From: an uncultured Gemmatimonadaceae bacterium
Lineage (GTDB): Bacteria > Gemmatimonadota > Gemmatimonadetes > Gemmatimonadales > Gemmatimonadaceae
Direction of reading: 5' to 3'
NCBI GenBank assembly: GCA_963822945.1
Contig: CAWGJO010000033.1
Coordinates: 32,001-96,000 of the forward strand
Length of the DNA stretch: 64,000 bases
The notes below the pieces were generated by a model, which was given only the letters and a program-made list of their open reading frames with translations, was not told where the DNA came from and ran no database searches. The position numbers were made by a program, and so were the translations under genes. Positions 2,922-55,031 of the stretch are shown here, piece after piece. Position 1 is the first letter of the stretch, and every line of letters starts with the position of its first letter.

Positions 2922-4191
2922 ATGATTCATCGAAGCCTTCGTCCGTGCGTGGTGGCTCTCGCCGCCGCTCTGGCCGCGACCACGACCCGGGCGCAGCAGC
3001 CCGCCCGTCCGCACTGGATCGCCACCTGGAGCCCGAGTGCGTCGGCCATGCCCGCCCGGCCGGCAGACGGGAAGCCGGATCCCGTGGAGACCTGGGCCCG
3101 CCGCACGCTCCGCGAGATCGTGCACACGACGATCGGCGGCGACAGCGTGCGCATCCGGATCTCCAACCAGTACGGCGACCGCCCGCTCACCATCGGCGAG
3201 GCGCGCATCGCGCTGCGCGCTGATACGGGCGGCCCCGCCACGAAACCGGGCACCGACCGCGCCCTCACCTTCGGCGGCCGGCCGGCGGTGACCATCGGTG
3301 CCGGCGCCACGGTGATCAGCGACCCCATCGCGTACCACGTGCCGCAGCTCTCCGACCTTGCGATCAGCCTCTACCTGCCAGACTCGGCGCGCACGTCCAC
3401 GCGGCACCTGCTCGGGTTGCAGACCAACTACGTGTCCACCGAGGGGGATTACGCCCGCGAGACGGCCTTCCCGACGGTGACGGCGGTGCAGCAGTGGATC
3501 TTTCTCACCGGGGTGGACGTGACCAACCCGGCGGCGGCGGGCGCCGTCGTGGCGTTCGGGAATTCGATCACCGACGGCTATCACTCCACGCCGGACGCCA
3601 ACCGCCGATGGCCCGATGACCTCGCGCGGCGGCTGCTCACCACGCCCGGCGCGCCGGTACTCGCGCGTGGTGAACGCGGGGATCTCGGGCAATCGCGTGC
3701 TCAACCCCGGGGCGGGGCCGAGCGCGCTGGAGCGTTTCGACCGCGACGTGCTCGACGAGCCCGGCGCGCGGTACGTGATCATCCTGGAAGGGATCAACGA
3801 CATCGGGCTGGCCAACTTCTCCAAGCGGGGCGCCGATTCGGTGAGCGCGGCGGACGTCATCTTCGGGCTGAGCCAGTTGGCGGAACGGGCGCACGAGCGG
3901 GGGCTGGTGGTATACGGCGCCACGCTCACGCCCTTCCAGGCGCCGCAGCCCTACGGCTACTACTCGGCGGAGTCGGAGGCCAGACGGGATTCGGTGAACG
4001 CCTGGATCCGGACCGGCGGCGCGTTCGACGGCGTCATAGATTTCGACGCGGTGACGCGCGATCCGAGCCACCCGACCCGCTTCCTGCCGGCGTACGACGG
4101 AGATCATCTCCATCCGAACGACGCCGGGTACGCGGCGATGGCGGCCTCGATCGATCTCGGACTCTTCCGCGCGCCGCCGCTCCATCACTAG
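2922..4191 (+). CDS. Secreted SGNH/GDSL hydrolase; one frameshift near 3660
   Basis: Signal peptide and VAFGNSITDG in the first frame; VVNAGISGNR, LEGINDIG and DHLHPN in the frame of ORF 3616..4191. Confidence 0.85.
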
Positions 4192-4205
4192 AGAGTGGTC
4201 AATTC

Positions 4206-4487
4206 ATGAAGTACCGCAACAAGACGGTCACCGTCGTGATCGACGTCCGATCGCGACTGGAGTTCTTCTTCGGGCACGTGCCGGGAGCGGTGTGCATTCC
4301 GGTGCAGAAGGTGAGCCACGAGGCATTGGAGAGGCGCGGCATCGCCCGCGACGCCGGCATCCTGGTGTACTGCGCCAGCGGCTCCCGCTCGGCGGGCGCG
4401 GCCCAGGCGCTCAAGCGCGCCGGCTACTCGCGCGTCGTGGACGGCGGCGGGCTGGCCGAGGTGAAGAAGCACCTGCGAGACGGCTGA
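4206..4487 (+). CDS. Single-domain rhodanese-like protein
   Basis: VIDVRS..EF..GHVPGA and active-site YCASGSRS. Confidence 0.85.
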   Translation: MKYRNKTVTVVIDVRSRLEFFFGHVPGAVCIPVQKVSHEALERRGIARDAGILVYCASGSRSAGAAQALKRAGYSRVVDGGGLAEVKKHLRDG

Positions 4488-4551
4488 GTACCAGCAGCGG
4501 GCAGTTGGCGGCCCGAAGTCTGCGGCGCTGCTCCGGCCTGTTCGTTGCCCG

Positions 4552-5182
4552 GGCGCCACCCTTGCAGCTCAGCCGTTCGGAGGCAAACGCTTTGGACTCC
4601 GACGAACGATCGAACGGATCGAACGGATCGGAACGGATCGAGACATGGGGTGGGGACTTGCGTTCGGCTAAAACGTGGCAGCCACTCCGGCTCACCGGTC
4701 AGGCTCTCGTAGCCGGTTCTCGCTGAGCACGCGGTGAAAGCGGGGCTCACGGCCGAAGTGCAGGAGTAGCCCTACCTCGAGATCGGTAGCACAGAGATAG
4801 CTGAACAGTTGGGCTGTCGCGTCGGGCGCGAGGTACGCAGTGGCCTTGATCTCGATGACGATTCTGCCGTCAACGATCATGTCCAGTTTCTGCCGCGCGA
4901 GGGGTCGCCCACGGTAGTAGACCATGACGGCTACTTCTCGATCCACGTGATGACCGGCTTCGGCCAGCTCTCGTTCGAGCGCCAGTCCGTAGATGTGCTC
5001 TCGGTAGCCGTGGCGCAGGCCGTTGTAAACCCGAAAGAAGCAGCCGATTATCGAGCGCGTACGCTCTGCTTCCAGCAGCCAGGGCCGTTCACCTTCAGTC
5101 ATCCGTTCAGATTCGTTGCATCCGTTCGATCCGTATCACCATTCGTTGGCACTCCGCATCGTTGAGCTGCACGGGCGGCGTC
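4552..5182. mobile_element. Putative GxxExxY-containing element bounded by imperfect inverted arms
   Basis: 4552-4573 vs reverse complement of 5161-5182 match 18/22; GAACGGATC repeats at 4601-4640 face ATCCGTT repeats at 5100-5147; mobility is inferred, not shown. Confidence 0.5.
4692..5102 (-). CDS. GxxExxY protein (putative PD-(D/E)XK nuclease fold)
   Basis: 136 aa; GYREHIY motif, LDMIVD..IEIK, QLFSYL, GLLLHFG. Confidence 0.9.
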   Translation of the reverse strand: MTEGERPWLLEAERTRSIIGCFFRVYNGLRHGYREHIYGLALERELAEAGHHVDREVAVMVYYRGRPLARQKLDMIVDGRIVIEIKATAYLAPDATAQLFSYLCATDLEVGLLLHFGREPRFHRVLSENRLREPDR

Positions 5183-5230
5183 TGCAAAGCTCGGCCGGGC
5201 AGGCACGAGGGGTCCGGACGTAGACAGTGC

Positions 5231-5325
5231 GGTGGCGCTCGGGCGGCTCGGCCGGGAAGGTGTCTACGGACTGGATGCGGAGCGTACGAGCCGGAACGGA
5301 TCAGAACGGGATCAAGACATGAGGG
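5231..5325 (+). repeat. Third ACGGA-type arm, homologous to 30449-30530 and inverted relative to 5100-5182
   Basis: Nearly colinear with 30449-30530 by eye; ends GATCAAGACATGAGG, similar to GATCGAGACATGGGG at the end of the first arm (about 4636-4650). Confidence 0.65.
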
Positions 5326-5382
5326 ACAGAAATGAGAGCGGCTGGGAGCTTGCCGCCCTCCCAACCGCTCTCGAGATTCCGC

Positions 5383-5446
5383 CCGACTGTCCGACTGTCC
5401 GACTGTCCGACTGTCCGACTGTCCGACTGTCCGACTGTCCGACTGT
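5383..5446 (-). repeat. 8-bp tandem array (CCGACTGT)x8
   Basis: 8 exact copies abutting the M28 gene stop codon at 5447-5449. Confidence 0.97.
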
Positions 5447-6700
5447 CTACTTCTTGATCGTCGCCCCCGTCAGCTCCGCCACCGCACCGAGCGTGGTCTG
5501 CGCCGCGTTGAGGCCGAGCATGAAGTCCTTGTCGTTGTACGTGGTGTAGACATCCGTGGGCTGGTGCCAGTTGGGATCCCAGCCGGCGCCGATCTGCGTG
5601 CCGCGCTCGTTCTCGCGCAGGCTGATGGCCGGCACCAGATCCTTGAACGGGTCCGAATCGGTGTTCGTCATGTGCCGGCCCACCTGCGCCGGATAGACGG
5701 TGGCGTACTTCTCGTTCGCGTCCTCGAACACCCAGGCGAGCTTCTCCGACTCGGCGGCCATCTTGGAGTTCGACTGAAACTCGATGTTCACGTCGGCTTC
5801 GGGGCGCTGCTGCTTGCTCACCGTGCCGTCGGCGCGCGGCATGCCGTGGTCCCACAGCATCATGTCGTGCTGGATCATGCCCGAGCCACTTGGGTTCCGG
5901 ATACTTGCCCGAGCCCGGCAGGATCTTCCTTGCCCTGCAGCGGCGCCCGCTGCTCCACGTAGGCGCGGCTGCCGTTCAGCCCCGATCTCCTCGTTGTTCC
6001 AGAGCACGAAGCGAATTGAACGGTCGGTCTTCACGTCGGGGCTGCTGAATACGCGGGCGAGTTCCATCACGAGCGCGGCGCCCGAGCCGTCGTCGTTGGC
6101 GGCCTGGCCCCAGCCGATGCCGTCCATGTGCCCGCCCACGATGTACATCTCGTCCGGGTGCGTGGTGCCGACCTTCGTGCAGTACACTTCCTGCCGTTCG
6201 CCCGCCGTGTCCGGCGTCTGCTCCGTGTCCATGGCGCGGATGGCCGGGTCGGGCTGCTTGAGCGAGTCGGTGTTTACGCCCGTGCGGGCGCGAAGCCCGC
6301 GGTACCGGCCGCCGCCCGACGCGATCTCCGACGGGCCGCGTCCCCGGCCCCGGCCCGCGCCTCGGCCGCGGAAGGCGCCGCGCGCCATGCGCGGACGCGG
6401 CGTGAAGGTGTACGTCAGCCGCTGAACGTCGCTGCACCCGTAGCTCTTGAGCTGCGCCTCGATCCAGTCCACCGCCTTGCGGTTGCGCGCCGTGCCCTGG
6501 CGGCGGTCGCCGAAGTTGGTGAGCCCCTTGATGGTCGCCTTGTAGCGGTCGAGGCTGAGACGGCCGACGAGTTGCGTGATCGTGCTGTCGCGGTCGGCAT
6601 AGCCGCCCTCCTGCACCTGCTGGGCCCGCACGGTGGCGGGCGCGGCGGCGAGCGCGAGGGCGAGCGTGACGGTGGTGGCGATGAACGGTGTGGCGCGCAT
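5447..6700 (-). CDS. Secreted M28 family metallopeptidase; compensating indels around 5880-5990
   Basis: Signal peptide; GGHMD, ANDDGSG, WNNEE, DSDPF, HQPTD; a garbled segment lies between NEE and GMIQHDM. Confidence 0.88.
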   Translation of the reverse strand: MRATPFIATTVTLALALAAAPATVRAQQVQEGGYADRDSTITQLVGRLSLDRYKATIKGLTNFGDRRQGTARNRKAVDWIEAQLKSYGCSDVQRLTYTFTPRPRMARGAFRGRGAGRGRGRGPSEIASGGGRYRGLRARTGVNTDSLKQPDPAIRAMDTEQTPDTAGERQEVYCTKVGTTHPDEMYIVGGHMDGIGWGQAANDDGSGAALVMELARVFSSPDVKTDRSIRFVLWNNEEIGAERQPRLRGAAGAAAGQGRSCRARASIRNPSGSGMIQHDMMLWDHGMPRADGTVSKQQRPEADVNIEFQSNSKMAAESEKLAWVFEDANEKYATVYPAQVGRHMTNTDSDPFKDLVPAISLRENERGTQIGAGWDPNWHQPTDVYTTYNDKDFMLGLNAAQTTLGAVAELTGATIKK

Positions 6701-30292: not shown

Positions 30293-30379
30293 GGGCAGAA
30301 GATACCTCACGGCGCTCCGCCCGTCAGCACGCCGCCACGGCGGTGAGAAACCACCGCGGCAGAGTCCGCCAGCACGTGC

Positions 30380-30530
30380 TCCGTTCAGTTCCGTTGTCCT
30401 CCGTTCGGTCCGTATCCGATTCGTAGAATGCCGAACGGCAGGGTTGCCGGTGGCGTCCGTGGGGCTCAACGGGGCAGGCGCCCACGAGTTTGGATACGGA
30501 CTGTACGGACCGGAACGGACCGGAACTGAG
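30380..30530. repeat. Gene-less inverted doublet of ACGGA-type arms (REPIN-like)
   Basis: TCAGTTCCG (30385-30393) pairs with CGGAACTGA (30521-30529); GTCCGTATCC pairs with GGATACGGAC; the right arm aligns with the GxxExxY arms. Confidence 0.7.
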
Positions 30531-30620
30531 AAGGCAGATGTGGCCTCACGCTCTGGTCGCGTCACCCGGGAAGCGGTACTATCTGGTATCTCCTATCTGC
30601 TCACCGCCCACCGAGTCGTC

Positions 30621-54176: not shown

Positions 54177-54392
54177 GGTGCGGGGAATATATCGCCGGGA
54201 CCCGCCGCCATCTGCATGCAATCGGTAAGGGGGTGGGCCGCCGACCAGCACCGGGAGGGCGCCGACCGGGGGGGCCTCAAGAACGGAGAACCTGGACCTG
54301 ATGATACGGATGGGCCGGATGAGACGGATGGAATTCGTTGGGGGTGCGGGAATCGGGTGACGGTTCGCCAAGGCCGTGCGCCATGCTCGGGA

Positions 54393-54806
54393 ATGGCTCA
54401 GGAACTCAAGGAAGGAGAGACCACCGGCGCGATCGTCGGCGCGTTCTATGCCGTGTACAACGGACTCGGATACGGATTCATGGAGAGCCTGTACATGGCG
54501 GCGCTGGAGCGGGAGTTGCGGGACCGTGGACACGGCGTGGGCCGGGAAGTGTACGTGCCCGTGAAATACCGGGGCGTGGAATTGGGCCGGCAGCGCCTCG
54601 ATATGGTGGTGGACGAGAAGGTCGTAGTCGAGGCCAAGGCCACGGAGATTCTTCACCCGAACGCCTCTCGACAACTCTTCGCCTACCTCCGCGCGACGCG
54701 TCTGGAGGTGGGTCTCCTTCTCCACTTCGGCCCGCGCCCGCGGTTCCATCGGGTGGTTTGCCTGAACACCACTGATCCCAACAAGCCCCGCATCCGCTCC
54801 GTTTAG
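54393..54806 (+). CDS. GxxExxY protein (putative PD-(D/E)XK nuclease fold)
   Basis: 137 aa; GFMESLY, LDMVVD..VEAK, QLFAYL, GLLLHFG. Confidence 0.9.
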   Translation: MAQELKEGETTGAIVGAFYAVYNGLGYGFMESLYMAALERELRDRGHGVGREVYVPVKYRGVELGRQRLDMVVDEKVVVEAKATEILHPNASRQLFAYLRATRLEVGLLLHFGPRPRFHRVVCLNTTDPNKPRIRSV

Positions 54807-54813
54807 TTCCGGT

Positions 54814-54843
54814 CCCCGCCCCCGCCCCCGCCCCCGCCCCCGC
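54814..54843 (-). repeat. (CCCCCG) hexamer run; G-quadruplex-capable on the minus strand
   Basis: CCCCG followed by (CCCCCG)x4. Confidence 0.85.
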
Positions 54844-55031
54844 GGTATCATCGCTCGTTTCCGCGCGGTACCGCGCCGTTTGTAGTTCCCCCGGCATGCT
54901 CCGTCTCATCCGTCCCATCCGAATCATCAGGTCCAGATGTTCCGTTCCTGATGCCCGCTCTGGCGCGCCCCATGCACCGCGGCCAATTTCACCGGGTCTC
55001 CCGTCCCGGTCCCCCGATTTCGAGGCTCGTC

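Follow-up and report, generated by a model that had tools for sequence, protein, structure and literature searches.

The GxxExxY gene of the 5-kb region of the window (the whole 64,000-nt stretch of DNA analyzed here, from an uncultured Gemmatimonadaceae bacterium whose genome is G000 below) is accompanied by hairpins, each of which consists of a pair of inverted arrays in which a 5-nt word (RCRRA) recurs about every 9 nt. The ACGGA-type arms of these hairpins are not private to the gene, for gene-less hairpins made of them occur across the genome. Since gene-less hairpins exist and the gene and its hairpins seem to have been swapped as one piece in a sister genome, the gene and its repeats likely form a DNA element, selfish or domesticated and so far undescribed, with an enzyme that would cut the element's own repeats. 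In the explanation that we favor, and hold to be slightly better than an even bet, a GxxExxY nuclease recognizes the periodic arrays and cuts, host repair copies the hairpins or the cassette, and losses and flips are host-made. GxxExxY proteins (PF13366/TIGR04256) form a large family for which a passage of PMC3424549 gives the function as ‘Unknown’ and notes ‘multiple transfers’; a cognate DNA element would provide this family of unknown function with a testable substrate.

An arm consists, in alignment, of a short head followed by three to four copies of ACGGA 8–10 nt apart, with a spacing mode of 9 across all loci. Around the window gene (Table 1) the inverted arms are nested, 4608–4638 facing 5101–5131 (31 nt, 87%) and 4554–4582 facing 5152–5180 (29 nt, 79%), and the local alignment score of the downstream against the upstream arm is 71, compared with a mean of 19.3 and a maximum of 35 among 300 dinucleotide shuffles (z 15.5) and with none of 1500 random genomic pairs reaching it, so that the arm likeness claimed by the original prediction clearly exceeds that of composition-matched sequence. 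The match of 4552–4573 to the reverse complement of 5161–5182 (18/22) likewise holds at its coordinates, but these segments are not outer parts of the arms, as had been proposed; they are the conserved inner-stem motif of a hairpin loop, and the copy at 4552–4582 also occurs in the loops of intact four-arm relatives and of gene-less hairpins. The third arm, which had suggested a forward/reverse/forward layout, is real and resembles the two others (z 6.6 and 5.6; profile match E 1.5e-6, the arm itself being in the training set) but is not an additional element: it is the partner of the upstream arm in the upstream hairpin (DNA fold of 5095–5330, z −2.97). Because the third arm pairs with the upstream arm and the supposed outer parts are loop motifs, the layout is hairpin, gene, half-decayed hairpin. 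Two complete hairpins surround the gene in the congeners G012 and G009, and in the gene-less congener G001 the single hairpin has the left flank of the first on one side and the right flank of the second on the other; the window locus is therefore a hairpin-gene-hairpin cassette in which one arm has decayed. One 7-nt unit, at 4600, is missing from the contigs assembled from two public runs, and a promoter and terminator scan of 4450–5500 returned none.

Table 1. Features of the window discussed in the text (positions are those of the window).
Feature	Position	Strand	Remarks
GxxExxY gene	4692..5102	-	136 aa; PF13366 and TIGR04256 matches, AF2 model, invariant columns
Downstream hairpin inner-stem (loop) motif	4552..4582	+	Partner arm decayed; 18/22 to the reverse complement of 5161-5182
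Downstream arm	4599..4645	+	ACGGA units at 8-9 nt spacing; coding strand reads TCCGT
Upstream gene-proximal arm	5097..5145	-	Head ACGAA-n-GATACGGA, then ACGGA/ACGAA units; the last gives ATG
Upstream hairpin inner-stem (loop) motif	5152..5182	-	Points toward the proximal arm
Third arm	5231..5313	+	Decayed loop motif plus arm 5264-5313; pairs with the proximal arm
Rhodanese gene (host gene, left border)	4206..4487	+	PF00581; orthologs in 14 genus genomes
M28 peptidase gene (host gene, right border)	5447..6700	-	PF04389
Paralogous unit	54270..54965	+	Arms ~54270-54345 upstream and ~54890-54965 downstream; own arm variant
GxxExxY gene of the paralogous unit	54393 (probable start) to 54806	+
Gene-less ACGGA-family hairpin	30378..30532		In three relatives, half-deleted in one, absent in one

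Further repeats and one gene irregularity lie beside the cassette. Eight tandem copies of CCGACTGT occupy 5383–5446, right after a short hairpin (5334–5372) and at the 3′ end of the M28 gene; the genome has 31 arrays of this type, of which the window array is present in G012 and not in G006, and one lies just downstream of a four-helix-bundle gene. Four such PF05635 genes were seen (L342–L345, on G000 C21, C12 and C20), one framed by its own inverted arms (L342) and two followed by tandem arrays (L343, L344), suggesting a parallel gene-plus-repeat system. Upstream of the rhodanese gene, at 2922–4191, a GDSL-like hydrolase is apparently split over two frames (ORFs 2922–4487 and 3616–4191), a possible frameshift or assembly error.

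The protein encoded by the window gene is a member of the GxxExxY family, matching TIGR04256 with an E-value of 5.3e-29 (100.9 bits against a curated cut-off of 35) and PF13366 with 2.4e-28 (99.3 bits against a cut-off of 22); Pfam and NCBIfam returned these two families alone for its 136 residues, and no HUH (Y1) tyrosine transposase. In an alignment of 57 sequences six columns are invariant (G32, E35, Y38, D74, E84, K86) and two nearly so (Q98, Y102), and the PD-(D/E)XK residues among them (E35, D74, E84, K86, Q98 and Y102) are intact in the window copy. The AF2 model (pLDDT 92.6) has Cas4 SSO0001 (4ic1) as its top Foldseek match (E 5e-4), followed by MGME1 and AdnA, and VIA gives Z scores of up to 7.6 across PD-(D/E)XK enzymes, a likeness at the level of the fold only; a sequence search of the PDB returned nothing relevant. 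The model thus predicts a Cas4/RecB-like PD-(D/E)XK nuclease fold. The genome holds three GxxExxY paralogs: the window copy, on the minus strand, shares 59% identity with the 54.4-kb copy, in line with the divergent and roughly half-identical paralog that had been described, and 42% with a third copy elsewhere in the genome. Close homologs are in Gemmatimonadaceae genomes, and cultured Gemmatirosa kalamazoonensis has one that is 56% identical.

The arms were traced through the rest of the genome with a profile built from 19 arms, which produced 21 matches (19 of them the training arms), all in inverted pairs, and none in the reversed genome. The matches comprise nine gene-less hairpins (six divergent, three convergent) and the three arms at the window gene, and a separate strict count gave nine inverted pairs in the genome versus 0, 1 and 0 in shuffled genomes. 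One of the nine gene-less hairpins lies in the window itself (30378–30532). By eye the gene-less hairpins occupy intergenic sites, and they are cleanly absent from some congeners. The original prediction that each gene's arms resemble each other more than those of the other gene is borne out (z 15.5 for the 5-kb and 15.4 for the 54-kb gene, versus 0.4–4.6 across genes). Pairwise homogenization as its cause is on average unsupported: core identity is 0.756 between the arms of one hairpin (n = 18) and 0.734 between hairpins of the genome (n = 124). Arm cores being equally alike within and between hairpins, the word is held across the family, and it is the units rather than their pairing that are conserved; orthologous arm cores are more alike still (0.863).

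Individual hairpin sites show a variety of states. At one intergenic site (G000 C1:14553–14677; L197, L214–L221) the arms are of ACGGA type in two genomes and GCGGA type in two, G000 itself having hybrid arms and G001 keeping only the two loop motifs; at this site arm types replace one another. Different repeat families, including runs of a CAACTG-type 6-mer, occupy the same intergenic spots in other comparisons (L310 and L315 against G000 C36 and C21), which makes these spots hot spots for hairpin elements. Two similar hairpins on G012 C5 (L222, L226) enclose a stretch of about 3 kb, which G000 lacks where the flanks correspond (C13:34704); this hints that host genes were deleted or duplicated from hairpin to hairpin.

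The association of gene and arms extends beyond the genus. The word RCRRA was derived from the first 57–60 loci and then tried on two held-out sets: a phylum set of 80 loci, from which 11 loci that were broken or partial and 6 that were duplicates had been removed beforehand, and a metagenome set of 65 loci from another clade, from which 15 of 84 rows had been removed as duplicates or for short flanks and in which 4 plasmid rows stand outside the count. Chains of at least three units upstream of the gene were forward in 17 and reverse in 2 loci of the phylum set, and forward in 32 and reverse in 5 of the metagenome set; downstream they were reverse in 19 and forward in 11, and reverse in 31 and forward in 10, respectively. 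Such chains were found in at most 0.5% of shuffles and at 0.2–0.4% of 3840 long genome ORFs. The constant orientation expected of the arms thus applies upstream of the gene (17 vs. 2 of 80; 32 vs. 5 of 65), but the downstream side is mixed (19 vs. 11 of 80). Four plasmid loci from outside the phylum include a Bacteroides one with clear arms and three below threshold, and a scan of viral contigs with a single distant homolog as query yielded one weak partial locus. In G015 a tandem hairpin array of 3.5 copies (179-nt period) directly precedes the gene. Several short N-terminal PF13366 fragments lie at scattered sites in G078 (L194–L196) and are possibly non-autonomous copies that keep the start of the gene.

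Evidence for an association in trans comes from pattern counts, for which stricter patterns replaced a loose one that matched gene-less genomes and a reversed control. At least four matches to the head pattern occur in 8 of 10 genus genomes that have the clade of the window protein vs. 1 of 7 that lack it; the pattern is missing from two clade-positive genomes and gives three single matches among 24 genomes outside the genus. Across the phylum, at least five matches to a general triple-unit pattern occur in 20 of the 55 genomes with PF13366 and in 2 of the 96 without it; kin are not independent in either comparison. Hairpins remain in the gene-less genomes G001, G109 and G114, and contrasts within the genus are uninformative or contrary, G109 having 23 matches with no gene found. 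One unpublished genome (G022) is a row in the tallies of relatives, rhodanese orthologs and head-pattern matches, and no claim hinges on it.

The original prediction also held that protein and arm sequence co-evolve. On the protein tree the middle dinucleotide of the word changes 29 times, against 69.6 with shuffled labels (minimum 62 of 300; n = 148), and on a tree with 87 labeled proteins the arm word shows 33 changes against 49.9 when shuffled, which supports co-inheritance of word and protein at short range. The paralogs of one genome keep the words of their clades, ACGGA at the window copy and GCAGA or ACAGA at the third. However, the trees (FastTree, ~119 columns) have many open forks and ACGGA is found again in several unrelated clades, so that the co-inheritance demonstrated is of short range only, and since kin share labels, a match between word and tree is not in itself co-evolution. 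A more specific lead comes from the protein. Where a threonine stands 17 residues before the glycine of the GxxExxY motif (Thr15 in helix 1 of the window protein), the fourth position of the word is G in 80 of 81 loci, and where it does not, the base is A in 35 of 47; the link appears in both subsets (Thr/G 48/48 and non-Thr/A 11/23 in one, Thr/G 32/33 and non-Thr/A 24/24 in the other). In tree-aware simulations, on a tree built without the Thr15 segment and with 15 of 143 loci removed as mixed-word, none of 1000 runs equaled Thr15 itself and 27 of 1000 did so when the best of 358 residue traits was taken, for a corrected p of about 0.03. The independent pairs number five, none of them opposite, which is too few for significance, and the trials covered four base traits; links of residues to word positions 1, 3 and 6 failed in independent pairs. 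Thr15 is for these reasons a lead, a candidate specificity residue that is suggestive of real co-evolution, and co-inheritance is the part of the claim that stands.

Comparisons of orthologous sites in the genus show the cassette in several states. At the junction of the rhodanese and M28 peptidase genes, 14 congener orthologs comprise seven with the gene, one with a hairpin only (G001), five that are empty and one that is rearranged. Between G000 and G012 the flanks are 96–98% identical and the gene 71%, whereas between G012 and G009 the gene is 94% identical and the flanks 88–89%; within the gene, all informative sites except two place G012 with G009, and 4388 and the hairpin at 5334 delimit the tract exchanged in G012. 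The cassette of G000 matches that of G006 at the level of the flanks (94% vs. 93%) and looks native. In a four-way background alignment of 240 kb, one of 594 windows has G012 nearer G009 than G000 by more than 3 points, and no window does so by more than 15. A second site is empty in G000, G006 and G001, carries one arm in G012, and in G009 carries a full hairpin between direct repeats of 8–9 nt; here G012 has seven sites of G009 type, all on one side and within 29 nt, and by +53 it has reverted. Runs of at least six G009-type sites occur five times in the 240-kb background, and no such tract lies beside the hairpin at seven other hairpin sites. These two events, both in one assembled genome, suggest that the whole cassette was swapped in place in G012, with a chimeric assembly or ordinary recombination as alternatives.

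Hairpin loops also invert. Of 16 orthologous hairpin comparisons 5 show an inverted loop, as do the two hairpins at the gene site, with crossovers located at different units, versus none of 203 flanking windows; micro-inversions of hairpins seem to be frequent in the genus. We considered whether inverted loops betray the action of the enzyme and rejected the idea: other hairpins with stems of at least 13 bp have flipped loops in 3 of 22 cases (p 0.24 against 5/16), those with stems of 10–12 bp in 0 of 349. Since ordinary hairpins flip too, the inversions likely reflect host template switching, a process for which sections of PMC8794818 describe loop inversion. Three ordinary intergenic hairpins (G000 C20:673296, 655174 and 766881) were seen to have inverted loops relative to G012, the two genomes being ~94% identical.

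In the mechanism that we propose, the GxxExxY enzyme would bind the 9-nt-periodic arrays of its flanking hairpins, as the conserved units and free linkers suggest, and, judging from the predicted fold, may cut at or near the repeat units. New or matching sites would then receive copies of the hairpins through host break repair, and at times of the entire cassette of gene and hairpins, so that spread would be a cut-and-repair gene conversion rather than a strand-transfer transposition; the short flanking co-conversion and the variable junctions point in this direction. Loop inversions and clean losses would probably be the work of host template switching and slippage and not of the enzyme, and the arm that supplies and partly hides the ATG may keep expression low. 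A bolder version, possible in our view but more probably wrong than right, would make GxxExxY genes a widespread and undescribed kind of mobile element: a minimal nuclease resembling Cas4 would read a 9-nt-periodic array that is programmable, with one helix-1 residue choosing between G and A, and by cutting it would drive both the spread of gene-less hairpins through the genome and a homing-like replacement of whole cassettes among related bacteria, all without a transposase or strand transfer.

A rather unlikely alternative, and the first to be weighed against cutting and copying by a selfish nuclease, is that the system is domesticated, the protein binding the arrays for a host purpose such as DNA repair, structure resolution or chromosome organization, with gains, losses and flips arising from host recombination or template switching. 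The gene is indeed under purifying selection (dN/dS 0.05–0.23 in eight computable pairs of the window protein's clade), and within the genus each paralog stays mostly at a fixed orthologous site and is vertically inherited; yet the 22 members of this one clade occupy 15 flank clusters, and the distribution of PF13366 is patchy (25 of 41 relatives; 55 of 151 phylum genomes), with many copies broken. Matches in as few as 5 of 72,556 plasmid and 2 of 50,697 phage records (one virus) fit a resident function, as do the flipping of ordinary hairpins and the age of the hairpin sites, which are common to distant congeners, but the apparent cassette swap is bounded by the edges of the cassette. For RAYTs, vertical inheritance and domestication are described in PMC5581495.

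Ribosomal RNA intervening sequences, which undergo RNase III-type excision, are the model for a reading at the RNA level, in which the arms would pair around the ORF in the transcript and either hide the start codon or guide such excision; by this analogy the reading is conceivable, and we think it improbable. The original prediction that the last repeat supplies the start codon is correct, with ATG at 5102 directly after the last unit (CTGAACGG-ATG), and among 22 clade members an in-frame ATG stands at the window position in 15 and directly after a unit in 12. The RNA of 4540–5200 also folds better than shuffles (z −3.5), as expected if the arms pair around the ORF, but the AUG is predicted to pair with the downstream arm at only ~0.55, and elsewhere at 0.42. 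Because no more than 6 of the 22 clade members have a proximal downstream arm, versus 12 with an upstream hairpin, the idea of an RNA stem that sequesters the start is weak; moreover, hairpins of either orientation exist, with loops that invert freely, linkers are on average without covariation within a hairpin, and an Rfam search of the unit gave no match. One public RNA run, at low cover, covers the rhodanese gene and none of the GxxExxY gene, which says nothing on expression or processing, and the public-run comparison drew on assembled contigs at low depth, with no piece spanning the unit and no informative joints.

Little probability attaches, in our estimate, to a conventional transposon with its MITE derivatives, in which the GxxExxY protein would be a transposase that moves an arm-bounded unit and leaves a fixed target duplication. 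Inverted arms do bound the gene in 25 of 144 loci (‘>[G]<’), gene-less copies occur, and one site lies between direct repeats of 8–9 nt, but three junctions have direct repeats of about 4, 6 and 8–9 nt, the direction of change being unsure. These repeats, varying from ~4 to 9 nt, give no sign of a fixed target duplication and fit slippage deletion as well as insertion; the ends do not look fixed either. The protein, whose predicted fold is that of a hydrolytic nuclease, has neither a DDE nor an HUH motif, and the genome (88% complete) contains no near-identical copies of the gene, its paralogs being 42–59% identical. Finally, it is very improbable that a generic repeat merely happens to lie beside a gene with which it has nothing to do: intergenic hot spots do gather several repeat families and 57 of 144 loci have no arm of at least three units within 300 nt, but strand-specific enrichment in two held-out sets, clade-specific words and near-zero controls contradict it.

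Returning to the cutting of its own repeats by a GxxExxY nuclease, the reading that we prefer, the link between Thr15 and the fourth base opens the way to a one-residue specificity swap, and a sequence-specific nuclease of 136 residues with a simple recognition rule would, if the reading is true, be of interest as a tool. In the full-text literature outside subscription journals we found no description of GxxExxY genes together with repeats; the term is used in passing in 10.1101/2021.01.26.428298 and also occurs in PMC12085832.

Set against known systems, the cassette shares features with several and coincides with none. MITE and insertion sequence pairs have inverted arms around one gene, gene-less derivatives and a constant target duplication; the first two of these are found here, and the three junctions give no sign of the third. 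Recent identical gene copies and a DDE, HUH, serine or tyrosine motif are absent. Free-standing homing endonucleases are small nucleases that replace alleles in place, with short co-conversion of the flanks, and sit at the same site in relatives. The GxxExxY protein is likewise a predicted small nuclease at the same site in relatives, and the two G012 events, in one genome and with a chimera or ordinary recombination as alternatives, may represent in-place allele replacement with short flank co-conversion; the putative binding arrays, however, lie inside the cassette, whereas homing cassettes lack them, and gene-less hairpins exist. With Cas4/RecB-like enzymes (SSO0001, MGME1, AdnA) the protein shares the predicted core fold and the E..D..ExK..QxxxY residues, but it is a minimal 136-residue domain with a best Z of 7.6. 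Cas4 has four Fe-S cysteines (Cas4 features after sections of PMC5704561), whereas the 57 aligned GxxExxY sequences have no invariant or near-invariant cysteine, and hence no Fe-S cluster is expected in them.

The closest parallel is with REPIN/RAYT (TnpA-REP) systems, as characterized in PMC3116915, PMC5581495 and PMC8266576. In both, a mostly vertically inherited enzyme gene lies beside a cluster of hairpin doublets that are also found between other genes, away from the enzyme gene; every paralog is accompanied by a repeat type of its own; and tandem clusters adjoin the gene. In contrast, RAYTs are HUH tyrosine transposases and the GxxExxY protein belongs with the PD-(D/E)XK enzymes by its predicted fold; REPs are short palindromes behind a conserved tetramer and the arms described here are non-palindromic RCRRA arrays with a period of ~9 nt; and there are about ten copies per type rather than hundreds. 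The enzyme-plus-hairpin system is thus real, widespread and apparently unpublished, working like REPIN/RAYT while failing its defining enzyme and repeat features, and would represent a second, chemically unrelated solution to the same arrangement that bears on how small repeat families persist in bacteria.
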